Source: an uncultured Verrucomicrobiota bacterium
Lineage (GTDB): Bacteria > Verrucomicrobiota > Kiritimatiellia > CAIQIC01 > Lenti-01
Assembly (NCBI GenBank): GCA_964526745.1
Contig: CAZGMQ010000004.1
Location: forward strand, 518-64,517
DNA: 64,000 bases
Direction: 5' to 3'
Each line of letters begins with the position of its first letter. Position 1 is the first letter of the stretch. This document shows positions 2,983 to 53,663 of the stretch, piece after piece. Below the pieces are notes generated by a model. That model saw only the letters and a program-made list of their open reading frames with translations. It did no database searches and was not told the DNA's origin. The position numbers were made by a program, and so were the translations under genes.

Positions 2983-3052
2983 AGATTGATGGGTCGGGTT
3001 GGGGCGGCGCTGCAAGGCGCTTGCCCCGGTTCTCCCAACTGGAGTTTGAACC

Positions 3053-3205
3053 ATGGCAAGGGAAAACATCACGCTGGCCTGCACGGAGTGCAAGCGCCGT
3101 AACTATATTAATACCCGGAACAAGAAGATCAAGACCGAGCGTCTTGAGTTGAAAAAGTTTTGCCCGTTCGAGCGGAAGCACACGGTGCACCGCGAGGTGA
3201 AGTAG
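3053..3205 (+). CDS. rpmG: 50S ribosomal protein L33
   Basis: Below the track cut-off. Hand translation [50 protein letters not shown]; canonical position between tuf and tRNA-Trp/secE. Confidence 0.97.
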
Positions 3206-6388: not shown

Positions 6389-9300
6389 ATGGTTGACAGG
6401 ATTAATTTTGGTAAGTTGACGGATGTGGTCGAGCTACCGGATCTCATTGAGATCCAGACGCGCTCGTACCGCGATTTTTTGCAGATGGATACGGCGCCGA
6501 ACAAGCGTCGTGCCGTGGGTCTGCAGGCGGTTTTCAAGGAAGTGTTCCCCATCGAAAGCTATGATGGGAACTGCACCCTGGATTTCGTTAAATATGAGGT
6601 GACCCCGCCTAAACAGCTGCCGTTTGTGAGCCTGAAAGAAGGCGAATCGCATACGGCGGCCCTGCATGTGACTTTCCGCCTGAAGAACCAGGCCGAAGTG
6701 CGCGAAGAGACTGTTTTCATGGGCGAAGTGCCTTTGATCACCGAGCAGGGAACCTTTATTGTCAATGGTGCCGAGCGCGTCATTGTCAGTCAGCTTCATC
6801 GGTCGCCGGGGCTCTGCTTCGAGCAGAGCGTCCATGCGAACGGCACCCTGCTGCATTCCTTCCGGATCATTCCGGACCGCGGCTCCTGGGTCGAAGTCCA
6901 GTTTGATACGGCGGATTTGCTCAACATCTATCTCGACCGCAAGAAACGCCGCCGGAAATTCCTGGCGACCACCTTCCTGCGTGCCCTGGGATACGGAAGC
7001 GATGAAGAACTGCTGGGTCTGTTCTATACCTTTGAGAAGCTGGATGTGGCCAAGGCCAAATCCGATCAGCTCGAAAACCGCGTGGTTAAAACGGACATCG
7101 TGGATGAAGACAGCCAAAGCATTCTGGTCAAGAAGTTCGAGCCGGTCACCAAGGACTTGCTTAAGCAGCTTCAGGCCGCCGGCATCAAGAAGCTCGATGT
7201 GGTCAATGTGTCTTGGGATGAAGGTTTGTTGCTGAAGAGTGTCCGCAAGGACCCCTCCGACAACGCCGACGATGCCCTGAAGGAAATCTATCACAAACTG
7301 CGTCCGGGCGATCCCCCGACAACCTCCAATGCCCGTCAGCTGCTGAAACGGATATTCTTTGATCCGCGCCGCTATGACCTCGGCCGCGTGGGTCGTTACA
7401 AGATCCAGCAGAAGCTGGGCCTCGATCCCAAGAACGAGAGCCGGGTGCTGGAAAAAGAAGATTTTGTGGCCGCTGTGAAATATCTAATCAACCTTCGCCG
7501 AGGCGAGGGGACCATCGACGATATTGATCATCTCGGCAGCCGCCGTATCCGTACGGTGGGTGAGCTGGTTGAAAACCAGTGCCGCGTAGGGTTGGCCCGA
7601 ACCGAACGCCTGGTGCGCGAACGCATGACGGTGTTTGATCAGCAGGCCGAAAAACTGACGCCCCAGAAGCTTATCAATCCCAAGGCCCTGGCCGCAGTGA
7701 TTCGTGACTTCTTCGGTCGCAGTCAGCTCTCCCAGTTTATGGATCAGACCAACCCGCTGGCCGAATTGACCCACAAACGCCGTCTCAGCGCCCTCGGACC
7801 AGGCGGTCTGAGCCGCGAACGCGCCGGCTTTGAGGTTCGCGATGTGCATTCGTCGCATTATGGCCGCATCTGCCCGATTGAAACGCCTGAAGGGCCGAAT
7901 ATCGGACTGATCTCGTCGCTGTCGATGTATGCTCGCGTTAACGAATTCGGGTTCATTGAGACTCCGTACCGTCGCGTGGTGGGCGGGAAGGTCTCGAAGA
8001 CCGTTATCGATTATCTGACGGCTGACCAAGAGGAAAACTATGTGATCGCGCAGGCGAATGCCCCTCTGAATGAGGATGGTTCGTTTGCCCGCGAGACCGT
8101 GGCGGGCCGCTATCGCGGTGAGTTCCTCGAAGTGGCCGTGGATCGTGCCAACTATATGGATGTGTCACCGAAACAGGTGGTCTCCGTGGCGGCCGGTTTG
8201 ATCCCGTTCCTCGAGCACGATGATGCGAACCGCGCTCTGATGGGGGCCAACATGCAGCGCCAGGCGGTGCCGTTGTTGCGCGTCGAGGCTCCGTATGTGG
8301 CGACGGGCGTGGAAGCCCGCGTGGCACGCGACAGCCGCGTGATGGTGATTGCCCGTGAGTCGGGCAAGACAGCCTATGTGGCCGCCGACCGTATTGTGGT
8401 GTCGAAGGACGGCTCCATGCCGACCAAGAAGACGCCGCAGGAGGATTATCAGTCCTATGATCTCCGCAAGTTCACGCGCTCGAATGCGGGGACCTGCATC
8501 AATCAGCGTCCGATTGTCAAGAAGGGCCAGAAAATCAAGAAGAACGATGTCCTCGCGGACGGCGCTCTGACGGATGACGGCGAATTAGCCATCGGTCGCA
8601 ATGTGCTGGTGGCGTTCATGCCCTGGTGCGGATATAACTTCGAGGATGCCATTCTGCTGAATGAACGTCTCGTCTCGGAGGATATCTTCACCTCGGTGCA
8701 TATTGATGAATATGAGTGCGGAGCCCGTGACACCAAGCTGGGCCCTGAGGAAATCACTCGCGACATTCCGAATGTCGGCGAGGAAGCTCTGAAGGATCTC
8801 GGGATGGACGGAGTGGTGCGCATCGGTGCAGAAGTGAACCCCGGCGATATTCTCGTTGGGAAGATCACGCCGAAGAGCGAGACCGAACTGGCTCCAGAAG
8901 AGAAGCTGCTGCGTGCGATCTTCGGCGAAAAGGCTGCGGAAGTGCGCGATACCTCCCTGACGGTCCCGAGCGGAACCTCCGGCATCGTGATGGATGTAAA
9001 AACCACCTCCCGCGATCTGCCGCAGCGCACCAAGATGAGCCCGAATGAGCGTCGCAAGCAGCAGAAGCAGATGGTGGATGAGTTTGACAAGCGCGAGTCC
9101 GAGATCACGGAGAACCTCACCGATGCGCTGTCCAACATCCTGCTGGGTGAAAAGATTCCGCTGGATGTGGTCAATGGCGAAACGGGTGAGATCATCATTC
9201 CGGCGAACCGGAAGATCACGAAGACATTGCTGCGCAAGTTGGCGGCGGCCTATGGCGTGATTGCCATCGACCCGAGTCCGATTCAGCAGAAGATCAGCAA

Positions 9301-24246: not shown

Positions 24247-24391
24247 ACCGCGCAGTTTCCCCCTAAACCCCTCCACCCGTCAAGCGCAGTGCGGGGTGTA
24301 ATATATATATGCATATGTGCATATGCACATAAGCGAATATAAGGATCACCATTGAATCTCGGGCGGGGTTGCGGGTAGAGTAAGGGTGAAG

Positions 24392-24461
24392 TTTCCATGG
24401 TATGGAAACCATTTTTGGAGTTTTTCCATGGTATGGAAGAAATGTTTCCACAGTGTGGAAA
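24392..24461. repeat. Dispersed palindromic repeat, copy A (three TTTCCAY-NNN-RTGGAAA units)
   Basis: Units at 24392-24408, 24423-24439 (last base G) and 24445-24461. The reverse complement matches 46755-46824 at 66/70 nt. Confidence 0.95.
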
Positions 24462-24587
24462 ACTTGGATTTTAGACCCCTGCGGCCTTGTGCCGCGGGTG
24501 AATGAGGCCGATTATTGGTGAGGCACAAACGGCAGACCTGGTTCAACCGCCACGCAAGGTGACGGGGGTGCCAGACAAGAGGACGAA

Positions 24588-34249: not shown

Positions 34250-34342
34250 GGGAGAACTATGGCGGGAGCGGCCTGTGCAGGTCAAGCGCGGGGACCGCGG
34301 CTTTCCATGCGGTGAACGGCCGCCGGCTGGAAATTCTTGAGT

Positions 34343-34381
34343 TTTCCATCGTGTGGAAACATTTTTTCCATGCTATGGAAA
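34343..34381. repeat. Dispersed palindromic repeat, copy B (two units)
   Basis: TTTCCAT-CGT-GTGGAAA (34343-34359) and TTTCCAT-GCT-ATGGAAA (34365-34381); 34/39 identical to 46755-46793, with every difference in the unit centres. Confidence 0.9.
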
Positions 34382-46712: not shown

Positions 46713-46754
46713 CCCTCAAGCCGCCCAACGGCGGCATGAGCCGAAGACCAAAAG

Positions 46755-46824
46755 TTTCCACACTGTGGAAACATTTTTTCCATACCATGGAAAAACTACG
46801 AAAATAGTTTCCATACCATGGAAA
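46755..46824. repeat. Dispersed palindromic repeat, copy C (three units)
   Basis: Units at 46755-46771, 46777-46793 and 46808-46824; inverted relative to copy A, 66/70 identical. Confidence 0.95.
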
Positions 46825-50932: not shown

Positions 50933-52351
50933 CTATTTCTTCTTGGCCTTCTTGACGATCTTCTTCGCGACCTTCTTTACTGGCTTCTTTGCGACTTTCT
51001 TAGCGGGCTTCTTGACCGCTTTCTTCACAACCTTTTTGGCTGCTTTTTTCGCAGGGGCCTTCTTCACAGCCTTTTTCGCCGTTTTCTTTGCCGGAGCCTT
51101 CTTCGCGACCTTCTTCTTGGCCTTCTTGACGACCTTCTTGGCGGCCTTCGGGGCGGGGACGGAGACATCCAGCACGCGTTCCATCGGATAGTCCATCAGT
51201 TCGGCGATGGTGCCGACGACGTCGGGCATCCGGTTGGTGAGCATCATGGAGGCGATGACGAAGGGCTTGTAACCGGCTTCCTTGTAGGTCGGAATGCGGT
51301 ACTTCTCAAAGACCTTGGCGGAGACTTCGCCGGCCTTGCAGGAGATGTCGGTGATGTCGGCGGGCAGGCAATGCATATACAGGGCCTTGCCCTTCTTCGT
51401 CAGCTTCATCTTCTTCTCGTCGCATTCCCAGTTTTTGTACTTGGCATTCTGCTTGAGACAGGATGCCTCCAGCTTCTTCAGACCGGCCTGATTGTTGGCG
51501 TTCAGCAGGTCGGTGCGCTTCTGCATGACCTGATAGGAAGCCCAGGACTTCGGATAGACAATGTCGGCATCCTTGAACGCGGCCGCCATGGAGGAAACCT
51601 GCTTGAAGGATCCGCCGCTGGCCTTGGCCTGCTTGCGAGCCAGCTTGACCACATCCGGGATGAGATCATACCCCGGCGGGTGGGCGAGCGTGACATCCAT
51701 GCCGAAGCGGGTCATCAGACCGATGATGCCCTGCGGGACGGAGAGAGGCTTGCCATAGGACGGGCTGTAGGCCCAGGTCATGGCGATCTTCTTGCCCTTG
51801 AGGGCTTCCAGGGAACCAAAGTGTTCCTTGAGCCAGCACAGGTCGGCCATGCTCTGGGTGGGATGGTCAATATCGCACTGCAGATTGATCACGCCGGGAC
51901 GCTGGGGCAGGACACCTTCTTTATGTCCGTCATCGAGGGCTTCGGCGACTTCGGTCATGTAGGTGTGGCCAGCGCCAAGATACATGTCATCGCGGATGCC
52001 GACGATCTGGGACAGGAAGGAGATCATATTCGCCGTTTCACGGACGGTTTCGCCGTGAGCGACCTGCGACTTGCTTTCGTCCAGATCCTGGACGGCCAGA
52101 CCGAGGAGGTTGGCGGCCGAGGCGAACGAGAAGCGGGTGCGGGTGGAGTTGTCGCGGAAGTTGGAGATCGCCAGGCCCGAGTCAAAGACGCGCAGGGAGA
52201 TATTCTGCCCATAGAGAGTCTTCAGCAGCTCAGCGACCTGGAGCACGAGTTTCAGTTCATCGGCGGACTTATCCCACGTCAGCAGGAAATCTTTTCCGTA
52301 GAGGCTGACCTTCAGCTTGCGGATGGATTTGAGCATATCAACAGCGTTCAT
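50933..52351 (-). CDS. ygeW: Knotted carbamoyltransferase YgeW with C-terminal Lys/Ala/Val-rich tail
   Basis: KDFLLTW, FRDNSTRTRFSFASA, HGETVRETANMIS, NLQCDIDHPTQ, WAYSPSYGKPLSVPQG, YMHCLPAD, YKEAGYKP; then a 74-aa xxKK repeat tail. Confidence 0.92.
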   Translation of the reverse strand: MNAVDMLKSIRKLKVSLYGKDFLLTWDKSADELKLVLQVAELLKTLYGQNISLRVFDSGLAISNFRDNSTRTRFSFASAANLLGLAVQDLDESKSQVAHGETVRETANMISFLSQIVGIRDDMYLGAGHTYMTEVAEALDDGHKEGVLPQRPGVINLQCDIDHPTQSMADLCWLKEHFGSLEALKGKKIAMTWAYSPSYGKPLSVPQGIIGLMTRFGMDVTLAHPPGYDLIPDVVKLARKQAKASGGSFKQVSSMAAAFKDADIVYPKSWASYQVMQKRTDLLNANNQAGLKKLEASCLKQNAKYKNWECDEKKMKLTKKGKALYMHCLPADITDISCKAGEVSAKVFEKYRIPTYKEAGYKPFVIASMMLTNRMPDVVGTIAELMDYPMERVLDVSVPAPKAAKKVVKKAKKKVAKKAPAKKTAKKAVKKAPAKKAAKKVVKKAVKKPAKKVAKKPVKKVAKKIVKKAKKK

Positions 52352-52481: not shown

Positions 52482-53663
52482 TTACAGCTTTTCAAGATCG
52501 GCCTGTTCCCGCAGCTGAATCAGCGCCGCGATCTTGGGGACATACATGCGGGTTTCCGCGGGCAGCTTGTGGTGGATATCGGCAAAGGTTGTCCCGTTGG
52601 TTTTCCGGAGGGTTTTCGAGAGCCGTCCCTCGCCGCAGTTATAGGCGGCCAGCGCCAGGGGCCAGCTGTGGAAGCGTCCATGGAGGCGCTTGAGATACTG
52701 GGCGGCCGCGCGGGCATTTTTATAGGCATCCAGACGTTCGTCTTTCGGGGTGAGGCGGAGACCGAACGATTTAGCGGTGGCCGGCATGAACTGGTAGAGG
52801 CCCGCCGCGCCCACGGGGCTGCGGGCGGCCGGATTAAATGTGGATTCGGCTTCCGCCTGCCAGACGAGTTCTGTGGGAACGCCCTCGGAGCGGAAGATCT
52901 GTTTCAACGTCGGCAGCATGGCCGGGGCCCGGGCGGGGACGGGGCGCCCTTTCAGTTTGCGGAGCCAGGACTGTTTGTTTTCTGCATAGAGGGTGGGGGC
53001 CTTCGATTGAACGGATGGATTAACCTCTACAGGAGGAGCCGGCGGGGGTGTCTTGGGATGCGGCGGCAGTTTTCCGACCGTCGGCAGTGTTTTGGGATGA
53101 GGTGGCAACGGTTTCTGGGGCGTCTTGGGGTGAGGCGGCAGAGGCTGTTGAGGCGTCTTGGGGTGAGGCGGCAGAGGCTGTTGAGGCGTCTTGGGATGAG
53201 GCGGCAAATTAGGCTTGGACGTCGGATGCGGCGGCAGGGGGGACGTGGACGGGGCCGTGGTCGTCGGTTTTTTCGATGCGGTCGGGAGCCTTCGCTGTTC
53301 TTCTTCGGCCATTTCAAAGAAATCCATTCGGGCCTCCAGCCAGTCGGCGTAGCCCTGTGTTTTCGGATCCGCCCGCAACTGGGCCAGCGTGGCTTTGGCC
53401 TGAGGTGCAACCGCGGCCAACTCTGTCAGACTTTCGCCGGCCAGTGCCTGCTGCATAGGGGCAACCAGTTCATTCAGCTCCTCGGCGGATACAAATTCAT
53501 ATTCTTCTTGGACCGATGCTGGAGCCATCCGTTCGAAAATTTCCTGTCCAGCTTCTGATATCTGCTCGGTATCCAGCTCCCATTCGTCGAGGAAAGCCGA
53601 AGCCGGCCTCGCAGAAAGAAGGACGAGGAATGGTAGAATCCAGATGAGGCGATTCGAGGACAT
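52482..53663 (-). CDS. Lytic transglycosylase (SLT/MltD-like, no LysM) with Pro-rich repeat linker
   Basis: Signal-like N-terminus (MSSNRLIWILPFLVLL), LPPHPK repeats, AEAESTFNP, AAGLYQFMPATA, LAAYNCGEG, ETRMYVPK. Confidence 0.9.
   Translation of the reverse strand: MSSNRLIWILPFLVLLSARPASAFLDEWELDTEQISEAGQEIFERMAPASVQEEYEFVSAEELNELVAPMQQALAGESLTELAAVAPQAKATLAQLRADPKTQGYADWLEARMDFFEMAEEEQRRLPTASKKPTTTAPSTSPLPPHPTSKPNLPPHPKTPQQPLPPHPKTPQQPLPPHPKTPQKPLPPHPKTLPTVGKLPPHPKTPPPAPPVEVNPSVQSKAPTLYAENKQSWLRKLKGRPVPARAPAMLPTLKQIFRSEGVPTELVWQAEAESTFNPAARSPVGAAGLYQFMPATAKSFGLRLTPKDERLDAYKNARAAAQYLKRLHGRFHSWPLALAAYNCGEGRLSKTLRKTNGTTFADIHHKLPAETRMYVPKIAALIQLREQADLEKL
53050..53245 (-). repeat. Intragenic 33-bp (11-aa) tandem repeat encoding LPPHPK units
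   Basis: GGCGTCTTGGGGTGAGGCGGCAGAGGCTGTTGA is perfectly duplicated at 53119-53184, with degenerate flanking copies; six LPPHP cores in the protein. Confidence 0.9.

Follow-up and report, generated by a model that had tools for sequence, protein, structure and literature searches.

The 64,000-nucleotide (64-kb) stretch of DNA analysed here, referred to as the window, comes from contig CAZGMQ010000004.1 of an uncultured bacterium of the class Kiritimatiellia and is a housekeeping region (tuf, nusG, rpoBC, murG, murC, ddl, ftsQAZ, lpxK, recN). Three of its intergenic gaps hold short arrays of a palindromic box, and these arrays, together with the repeat family to which they belong, are the subject of this report. 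Element A (24392..24461), which like the other two has no strand, consists of three boxes (24392-24408, 24423-24439 and 24445-24461) with centres 31 and 22 bp apart, and occupies the divergent gap between an MtnA-like gene of the IF-2B family and ddl, beginning 10-11 nt past a conserved putative -10 element of the ddl promoter. Element B (34343..34381) comprises two boxes 22 bp apart (34343-34359 and 34365-34381) in the tandem gap between a gene of the LPG_synthase_TM family and lpxK, 22 nt past the stop codon of the former and about 60 nt upstream of the -35 element of the latter. Element C (46755..46824), an inverted copy of A, has its three boxes (46755-46771, 46777-46793 and 46808-46824) in the convergent gap between wzt and a gene that has good coding signal and encodes a secreted protein of 299 amino acids (aa) of unassigned family; it thus lies between two stop codons, 43 nt past that of wzt and 3 nt past that of the 299-aa gene.

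A scan of the window with the pattern TTTCCAYNNNRTGGAAA recovered eight units, seven exact and one with a single mismatch, starting at positions 24392, 24423, 24445, 34343, 34365, 46755, 46777 and 46808. At up to two mismatches the pattern has nine matches in the window against 0.68 expected, a number that none of 100 shuffled sequences equalled. The ten-base core TTCCA-N5-TGGAA has eight exact matches, and the three further matches with one mismatch found elsewhere in the window are at chance level (about two). Start-to-start distances are 31 and 22 bp in A, 22 bp in B, and 22 and 31 bp in C. A and the reverse complement of C, which lie 22 kb apart, differ at 4 of 70 positions, three of them within the 14-nt spacer (11 of 14 spacer bases identical), and their likeness fades within about 5 nt beyond the outer units. 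The box variant of the window genome is TTTCCAY-NSN-RTGGAAA. Its innermost pair is T-A in five units, C-G in two and T.G in one, and the middle base of the three-nucleotide loop is G or C in all eight.

Much of this anatomy had been described in a first-pass annotation of the window made from its letters and open reading frames alone. The eight palindromic units at three loci agree with the pattern counts against shuffles, the 22/31 bp spacing with the start-to-start distances, and the inverted copies A and C (66/70 identical) with the alignment. The elements are indeed AT-rich in GC-rich DNA (56-63% GC across the window, with a GC skew that keeps one sign throughout), and their divergent, tandem and convergent contexts are those given by gene calls and Pfam, where LPG_synthase_TM is the Pfam label of the gene that had been called a flippase, and not a demonstration of that function. 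The loop, which had been called free, is constrained at its middle base, both in the window and family-wide.

The same box is widespread in Kiritimatiellia. We scanned one genome per species, in 8-kb blocks, for two cores 4-20 nt apart (a spacing of 19-35 bp) and found box pairs in at least 118 blocks from at least about 60 assemblies. These numbers, like all family-wide counts of units, distances and clusters below, refer to 8-kb blocks among the matches listed; individual blocks and loci are cited by L numbers. Nearly all blocks are titled Kiritimatiellia, Kiritimatiellales, Pontiellaceae or Tichowtungia, either as metagenome-assembled genomes (MAGs) or as isolates, and those labelled "Lentisphaerae", "Verrucomicrobia" or "Spartobacteria" presumably belong to the same lineage. 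The mtnA-ddl gene order and the repeat are common to the window, L015, L128 and L141, and the box variant of the window is also that of MAGs titled Kiritimatiellae. We excluded a few matches from other taxa, among them Azoarcus and Bacteroidales, as unrelated tandem repeats (L008, L014, L041, L045, L068, L069, L077, L081, L110). Three of these, in Azoarcus (L008, 579-671), an unclassified bacterium (L081, 334-411) and a Prevotellaceae MAG (L077, 3292-3372), have periods of 26, 21 and 22 bp, respectively, and contain the core by chance.

The consensus of 416 pooled units is TTTTCCA-[A or Y]-N-S-N-[T or R]-TGGAAAA, that is, TTTTCCA-N5-TGGAAAA with a G/C centre; 200 units have C as their central base and 201 have G, together 401 of the 416. 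Two dialects can be distinguished. The A dialect, TTCCAA...TTGGAA, is found in most genomes, and the Y dialect, TTCCAY...RTGGAA, in the window and some 30 blocks, most of them from digesters and bioreactors. Box centres in other lineages are AGSCT or CNSNG. In the literature we found nothing relevant on these box sequences or on Kiritimatiellia palindromes, and annotated phage and plasmid collections held no similar DNA; the repeat family is apparently undescribed across the class. Several contigs begin or end inside arrays (L002 at 1-40, and the ends of L024, L105 and L108), which suggests that the repeats break short-read assemblies.

Distances between neighbouring units are quantised. Among 222 such distances, 45 are 21-22 bp and 153 are 30-32 bp, with the rest clustering at 42, 51-53 and 61-65 bp. 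These values correspond to 2, 3, 4, 5 and 6 turns of a 10.5-bp helix, though the search pattern permitted any spacing from 19 to 35 bp. Arrays reach eight boxes in length, and spacer sequence is free outside the A- and T-runs that flank each box; for example, every box in bin-1020 reads TTCCAATSATTGGAA, and the spacers there are unrelated to one another. In two MAGs (L009, 2647-2780; L015, 3540-3590) boxes lie 41-42 bp apart, and one GC hairpin, ATCCCGCGTGGGCGGGAT, takes up the additional turn in both.

One explanation to be weighed against these data is that the boxes are a non-autonomous mobile palindrome, similar to repetitive extragenic palindromes (REPs), the bacterial interspersed mosaic elements (BIMEs) built from them, or miniature inverted-repeat transposable elements (MITEs), which would be copied in trans and persist as insertions at gene ends do little harm. 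The density of the family, about one further cluster per 10 kb beyond the cluster that seeded each block, is REP-like; L079 and some other arrays look tandemly duplicated; and metagenome contigs such as L002 break within the repeat. The spacers point the other way: being unconserved within a genome, they indicate that most arrays are not copies of one another. It is hard to see what quantisation by helical turns would mean for a single-stranded hairpin, and the same box recurs across about 60 species, whereas REPs are usually species-specific.

The two half-sites of a box vary independently. In the Y dialect, positions 5 and 9 combine as C-G in 45 units, T-G in 25, C-A in 22 and T-A in 8, which gives a Watson-Crick fraction of 0.51 against 0.545 expected under half-site independence; in the A dialect the fraction is 0.78 against 0.74 expected. 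None of the six phased units with two core mismatches carries compensatory changes. On the sense strand, G.U combinations at positions 5/9 are not in excess over A/C (18 v 20; 14 v 13), and the bias at positions 6/8 is opposite to that expected of an RNA stem (17 v 38). Covariation of the innermost pair, which the first-pass annotation had proposed and which is literally true of the eight window units, is therefore without support family-wide, and hairpin covariation in the boxes was rejected. Nor do boxes prefer an inverted arrangement: among clusters of two boxes, 42 have different asymmetric centre bases and 32 have identical ones (p = 0.30), and like orientation is the more frequent in longer arrays (100 v 58). 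This pattern, like the lack of covariation and compensatory change, counts against a mobile hairpin of the REPIN type (a REP doublet forming a hairpin).

A similar argument applies to RNA. In untranslated regions the boxes might form hairpins at which transcripts are terminated, processed or stabilised, on either strand since boxes are palindromic. Single strands of the arrays fold better than shuffled sequences (z = -3.4 to -6.2), as is expected of any palindrome, and under lenient scan settings some units are flagged as a weak stem with a T-run behind it, for example GTTTCCACACTGTGGAAAC ATTTTTT at 46754-46772. On the other hand, compensatory change is absent, G.U is not favoured, and the 6/8 bias is reversed. 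The stems are AT-rich, only 7-9 bp long, and end in an A-run instead of a U-run, and the bimodal 22/31 bp spacing goes unexplained. Rfam has no family at the three window loci at gathering score, and in permissive scans of A and C the best score was 24 bits against a cut-off of 60.

The boxes also appear to be maintained. In 740 kb we counted 389 exact cores against 0.5 expected and 82 cores with one mismatch against 10 expected. The one-mismatch class is thus smaller than the exact class, unlike the outcome of unconstrained decay, where a larger class would be expected. Such a scarcity of decayed copies is a further point against a mobile element.

Gene positions were assigned with our own crude codon-usage gene caller, which around ddl agrees with the public annotation. 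The 144 multi-unit clusters comprise 98 between genes, 9 in partial overlap with a gene and 37 inside open reading frames (ORFs). About 30 of the latter have clear coding signal on both sides, and about a fifth of arrays are in genes. Since only about 13% of the sequence is intergenic, arrays are enriched about 25-fold in intergenic DNA. Arrays occupy 13.5% of tandem, 17.9% of divergent and 12.8% of convergent gaps, which suggests no preference for promoters. Their median distance is about 21 nt to a stop codon (20 of 74 within 9 nt) and about 50 nt to a start codon, and in half of the arrays between genes the first box is no more than about 20 nt from a stop. Proximity to stops and the even use of convergent gaps are compatible with a mobile element, and the former also with RNA hairpins.

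Arrays inside genes show the same spacing distribution as intergenic ones. The box is translated in three reading frames, giving the peptides FQxLE, FPxIGK and SxxWK, in variable protein segments, and arrays are found inside the essential genes murF, murD, pyrC and hemW. In the HemW-like gene of L065, two boxes align residue-for-residue with L047 and with Escherichia coli HemN (FFQGLEKE in L065, aligned with WFAGLERE and YLDALEQE), and the DNA differs by point changes. Similarly, the boxes of a KamA-like gene (L062 compared with L108) arose by substitution, and L062 and L071 share the codon position of a box. Other cases involve a net gain in length: MurF of L016 has 22 residues more than that of L082, and PyrC of L066 carries four boxes in a variable loop that is about 13 residues longer than in PDB 2gwn. 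Net changes of 0, 7, 13 and 22 residues do not match the insertion of one fixed element. Thus, some net in-frame insertions are in keeping with mobility, but the boxes written by substitution and the varied lengths are not what insertion of a fixed unit would give. For RNA hairpins these genes pose a different difficulty, as arrays of the same spacing sit in essential genes where a terminator would be harmful. Intrinsic terminators were rejected on this ground and for their AT-rich 7-9 bp stems ending in an A-run, and RNA hairpins in general seem to us an improbable explanation of the family.

No gene family recurs beside arrays across genomes, and the largest arrays flank unrelated genes. Among the 69 genes whose 5' end faces an array, 120 Pfam families are represented, each by at most two members, in agreement with the view of the first-pass annotation that the elements are not the operator of one regulon. 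This bears on the proposal that the arrays are ordinary operators of a local transcription factor for envelope genes (ddl-ftsQAZ, lpxK, wzt). All three window loci do adjoin envelope-biogenesis genes, A lies just past a conserved -10 element in a position retained in relatives, and arrays stand upstream of lpxK in both the window and L130. Element C, however, has a stop codon on either side; genes next to arrays have no function in common across the family; some genomes have three arrays per 8 kb (L012, L053, L057); arrays occur in genes and in phages; and B is missing in the syntenic L131 although the lpxK promoter is conserved there. Together with the equal use of convergent gaps, these observations led us to reject confinement to the promoters of a single regulon, and local envelope operators are very unlikely indeed.

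We used LpxK of the window to retrieve 80 related metagenome loci with 55-85% identity. The box is rare among them: 12 exact units occur in 780 kb, all but one in the group with 78-85% identity, and none in the 540 kb of the group with 55-65% identity. Some relatives with 84%-identical LpxK have no box in 21 kb, and a search for a substitute palindrome in relatives lacking the motif found none. Comparison of filled and empty sites, which the first-pass annotation had proposed, gave different outcomes for the three elements. Site A is kept in place: the mtnA-ddl gap contains three perfect boxes in the window, two in L128, four in L141 and at least five in L015. Ddl in these lineages is 67-77% identical to that of the window, box number and spacers differ, and in the window, L128 and L141 the first box lies 10-11 nt past the promoter-like element. 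Site B is empty in L131, despite the same gene order and the same lpxK promoter, and L130 has a three-box array before lpxK next to a different upstream gene. Site C is likewise without boxes in L246 and L247 (none in 29 kb), though the order recN / 299-aa gene / wzt is kept; the sequence of element C is also present in another metagenome (L249). C carries the genome-specific box variant of A and most of its spacer, and C itself is missing in relatives; it is therefore probably a recent copy of A. In L246, the gap matching site C is occupied by 1.2 kb of AT-richer DNA (7022-8234) with no called gene and many short T-run/A-run repeats, which may be a different insertion.

Patchy distribution among relatives, sites B and C that are filled here and empty in relatives, and the near-identity of A and C across 22 kb are marks of mobility in the data, and boxes in phage genomes add to them. 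The search for an enzyme gave no support: phmmer with E. coli RayT, a REP-associated tyrosine transposase (RAYT), found no match at E <= 10 among 16,968 ORFs from 2.09 Mb, a weak test that covers a small part of each genome, and no transposase was found among the 18 window proteins scanned with Pfam. Taking the spacers, the half-sites, the doublets, the scarcity of decayed copies and the in-gene boxes into account, we consider a mobile palindrome unlikely as the general explanation.

A scan of viral contigs returned 45 stretches, about 15 of them with true boxes. Two of these contigs, L209 and L208, have arrays of six boxes (2786-2946) and five boxes (3034-3165), respectively, in roughly 1.9 kb of non-coding DNA. 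On one side of this DNA is a gene with a helix-turn-helix like that of sigma-70 region 4; on the other side, downstream of the arrays, follow terS/terL, namely a small-terminase-like ORF and a large terminase (phrog_2, E = 2e-47). This is where pac or cos sites usually lie. At the borders between head genes, L226 and L206 hold a pair of boxes and several lone ones; such arrays between structural genes of phages would also fit RNA hairpins.

These phage arrays are pertinent to another explanation, namely that the boxes are a self-recognition signal accruing by molecular drive, for DNA uptake or for packaging by a phage or transfer agent, with a receptor that reads double-stranded DNA. Arrays just upstream of terS/terL in two phage contigs would suit such a signal, as would the origin of boxes by substitution even in essential genes, in all three frames and in variable segments. 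Lineage dialects (TTCCAAT... versus TTCCAY...), patchy presence among relatives and enrichment at gene ends are also in line with it. Yet the density is about ten times below that of known uptake sequences, which moreover are not helically phased palindrome pairs, and the fixed position of A behind a promoter in four lineages suggests a local role. We therefore give a drive signal little credence.

The explanation that we favour, with a probability of about 0.5, is that the arrays are cooperative binding sites on double-stranded DNA for a putative dimeric, tetramer-forming global protein. Spacing quantised in helical turns, free spacers, independent half-sites, strict conservation and the same geometry inside genes jointly point to a two-fold symmetric dimer that binds double-stranded DNA on one face of the helix. 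The central G:C pair, found in either orientation in 401 of 416 units, is what a two-fold symmetric reader would accept. Because arrays occur in any type of gap, beside any gene, within genes and in phages, the protein would be global and not specific to a regulon. From this anatomy, phasing, distribution and conservation we infer protein binding, oligomerisation and a biological role of the arrays. Each box would be a site for a symmetric dimer of a sequence-specific protein, with half-sites TTCCA and TGGAA one helical turn apart, and dimers on boxes two or three turns apart would sit on the same side of the helix and could assemble into a cooperative dimer of dimers or longer oligomers. We picture the protein as an architectural or nucleoid-associated factor, or as an insulator; local action is also possible, given that A, 10-11 nt past the -10 element of ddl, is in a repressor-like position. 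The arrays themselves would change by substitution in place, by local duplication of a unit with its spacer, and occasionally by copying between loci.

Several observations weigh against this protein-binding interpretation. There is no candidate binder among the genes that neighbour arrays, where no family recurs. Some traits are typical of REP- or MITE-like repeats as well: closeness to stops, patchiness among close relatives, boxes at sites B and C of the window but not of its relatives, and the identity of A and C at 66 of 70 positions, including 11 of 14 spacer bases. The in-frame gains in MurF (+22 aa) and PyrC (about +13 aa) belong here as well. In sequence specificity the boxes far exceed usual nucleoid-protein motifs, and a sequence-specific enzyme that recognises the motif as a single-stranded hairpin is a possible alternative reader. 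No protein having been found, and population-level traits being shared with selfish repeats, our confidence stays at the value given above. Of the two alternatives of the first-pass annotation, its phased binding array is favoured by the quantised spacing, free spacers, independent halves and few decayed copies, and its REP/REPIN hairpin is disfavoured by the lack of covariation and of an inverted preference but retains patchiness, filled and empty sites B and C, and the A/C copy. The readings are partly compatible, as a protein-bound site can also spread.

A broader proposal, which we advance tentatively and hold to be rather doubtful, is that Kiritimatiellia and their phages share a genome-wide phased-box signal, read by a putative tetramer-forming protein, that serves self-recognition or chromosome handling and neither gene regulation nor selfish spread. 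Such a signal would be so strong that substitutions create it within essential genes, and might be used, for example, in DNA uptake, phage or transfer-agent packaging, or domain insulation.

If the arrays are docking sites, they would point to a DNA-binding protein of high abundance and to a novel way of organising the chromosome or insulating transcription in Kiritimatiellia, a poorly studied class of the Planctomycetes-Verrucomicrobia-Chlamydiae (PVC) superphylum with few cultured members. With hundreds of sites per genome (as gauged from 8-kb blocks), two dialects, phasing and in-gene sites, the family is also a natural data set for the origin and upkeep of motifs. In practical terms, it probably accounts for assembly breaks, and it accounts for odd peptides (FQxLE, FPxIGK, SxxWK) in annotated proteins, and the arrays could serve as a lineage marker and as a link between phages and hosts.

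Other features surround the three elements. The putative ddl promoter (24352..24381, + strand), read from the sequence, consists of TTGAAT (24352-24357), an 18-nt spacer and TAGAGT (24376-24381); L128 and L141 conserve it as TTGAAA/TTGAAT-N17-TAGAGT, immediately ahead of the array. With 8 of 12 positions matching, it was left unflagged by a consensus promoter scan. If this element functions as the ddl promoter, as we infer, transcription would run straight into A. Directly after A, in the long ddl leader, lies a GC-rich hairpin, gacccctgcggccttgtgccgcgggt (24474..24499, + strand), which is not a member of the repeat family; it is kept in L128 and missing in L141, whose array abuts the ddl start codon. 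Upstream of lpxK, the promoter-like site TTGACC-N18-CATAGT (34256..34285, - strand) ends about 6 nt before the lpxK ATG and is kept as TTGACC-N17/18-CATAGT in most relatives with 73-85% LpxK identity (L121-L144); the short gap to the ATG suggests a leaderless mRNA.

Between the start codon of the mtnA-like gene and the ddl promoter, about 30 nt within 24296-24335 are strictly alternating purine/pyrimidine and AT-rich, with a perfect palindrome, TGTGCATATGCACA, and a repeated TGCATATG. This tract, absent from L128 and L141, could be prone to form Z-DNA or be an operator. Elsewhere in the window, the gene at 50933-52351 (- strand) encodes a Lys/Ala-rich tail of 75 residues with KKxAKK repeats, similar to histone H1, the tail being encoded by a 12-nt periodic repeat at 50936-51161; the corresponding gene in L246 and L247 is called with OTCace_N and OTCace domains. 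A 33-nt unit is repeated in tandem in five or six copies at 53036-53239, inside the gene at 52482-53663 (- strand).

Among known systems, REP, BIME and REPIN elements resemble the family in being short palindromes, hundreds per genome (here gauged from 8-kb blocks), that are mostly intergenic, often just past stop codons, arranged in arrays with set spacings and patchy among lineages. REPs are known to recruit DNA gyrase. The Kiritimatiellia boxes differ in that the units are shorter (perfect palindromes of 15-19 bp) with a core constant across the whole class, spacers are unconserved, covariation is absent, spacing follows the helical repeat, and about one in five arrays lies inside a gene; the absence of an inverted preference argues against box pairs as REPIN doublets. 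One study (PMC3479197) also describes REPs as recruiting host proteins such as IHF. CRISPR-like arrays were rejected as the spacers of 5-16 nt are far too short.

A direct parallel in geometry is NrdR, which binds as a tetramer to two 16-bp palindromic boxes; these are joined by a linker of 15-16 bp, and binding requires whole helical turns from one box centre to the other (PMC12051234, PMC13584703). NrdR boxes are likewise 31-32 bp apart centre to centre, and alternative spacings differ by one whole turn; the 21-22 and 30-32 bp spacings of the Kiritimatiellia boxes also place them integer turns apart, as in tetramer operators. NrdR boxes have another sequence, however, and occur only before ribonucleotide reductase operons, whereas the boxes described here are genome-wide, in arrays of up to eight and beside unrelated genes. 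By this analogy, the likeness would be one of mechanism, not of membership. A likeness to the 7-1-7 sites of the Fur family (TTCCAAT-S-ATTGGAA, with its AAT-N-ATT centre) was judged a coincidence, since other lineages use AGSCT or CNSNG centres.

Dimeric proteins that act on chromosomes as a whole offer another comparison. ParB-parS, Noc and its binding sites (NBS), SlmA and its binding sites (SBS), and MatP-matS all pair a dimeric protein with a specific palindrome that is scattered irrespective of gene function and tolerated in genes. These are single sites, from a few to about 100, without phased arrays, and TTTTCCAAT-S-ATTGGAAAA resembles none of them. The likeness to Pseudomonas-type parS that the first-pass annotation had drawn did not stand, as the half-sites of parS, TGTTNCACGTGAAACA, abut without a spacer, and the boxes have a centre of 3-5 nt and a different half-site; the family consensus TTTTCCAAT...ATTGGAAAA is further still from it. 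DnaA boxes (TTWTNCACA), which are monomer sites, were rejected because only CAC-type halves (TTTTCCACA) fit and T-type halves (TTTCCATGG) and TTTTCCAAT do not; two-fold symmetry and a fixed centre also oppose them.

Finally, the family can be compared with motifs that accumulate genome-wide. The DNA uptake sequences (DUS) of Neisseria and uptake signal sequences (USS) of Pasteurellaceae, whose intergenic copies often lie at gene ends as inverted pairs, are likewise short motifs that accrue by substitution, also within genes in tolerated frames, and that have lineage dialects. Unlike the boxes, they are not phased palindromic pairs, are about ten times denser and are tied to a known competence receptor. 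Rickettsia palindromic elements (RPEs; 100-150 bp) and the highly iterated palindrome HIP1 of cyanobacteria occur in frame inside coding genes as well, RPEs having been inserted and HIP1 having arisen mostly by substitution; HIP1, a palindrome of 8 bp, stands alone and without phased pairing, in contrast to boxes of 15-19 bp at 22/31 bp. Lacking the defining features of REPINs, parS, DnaA boxes and terminators, the Kiritimatiellia family is a mixture of traits known separately from REP/BIME arrays, from tetramer operator pairs and from motifs selected genome-wide.

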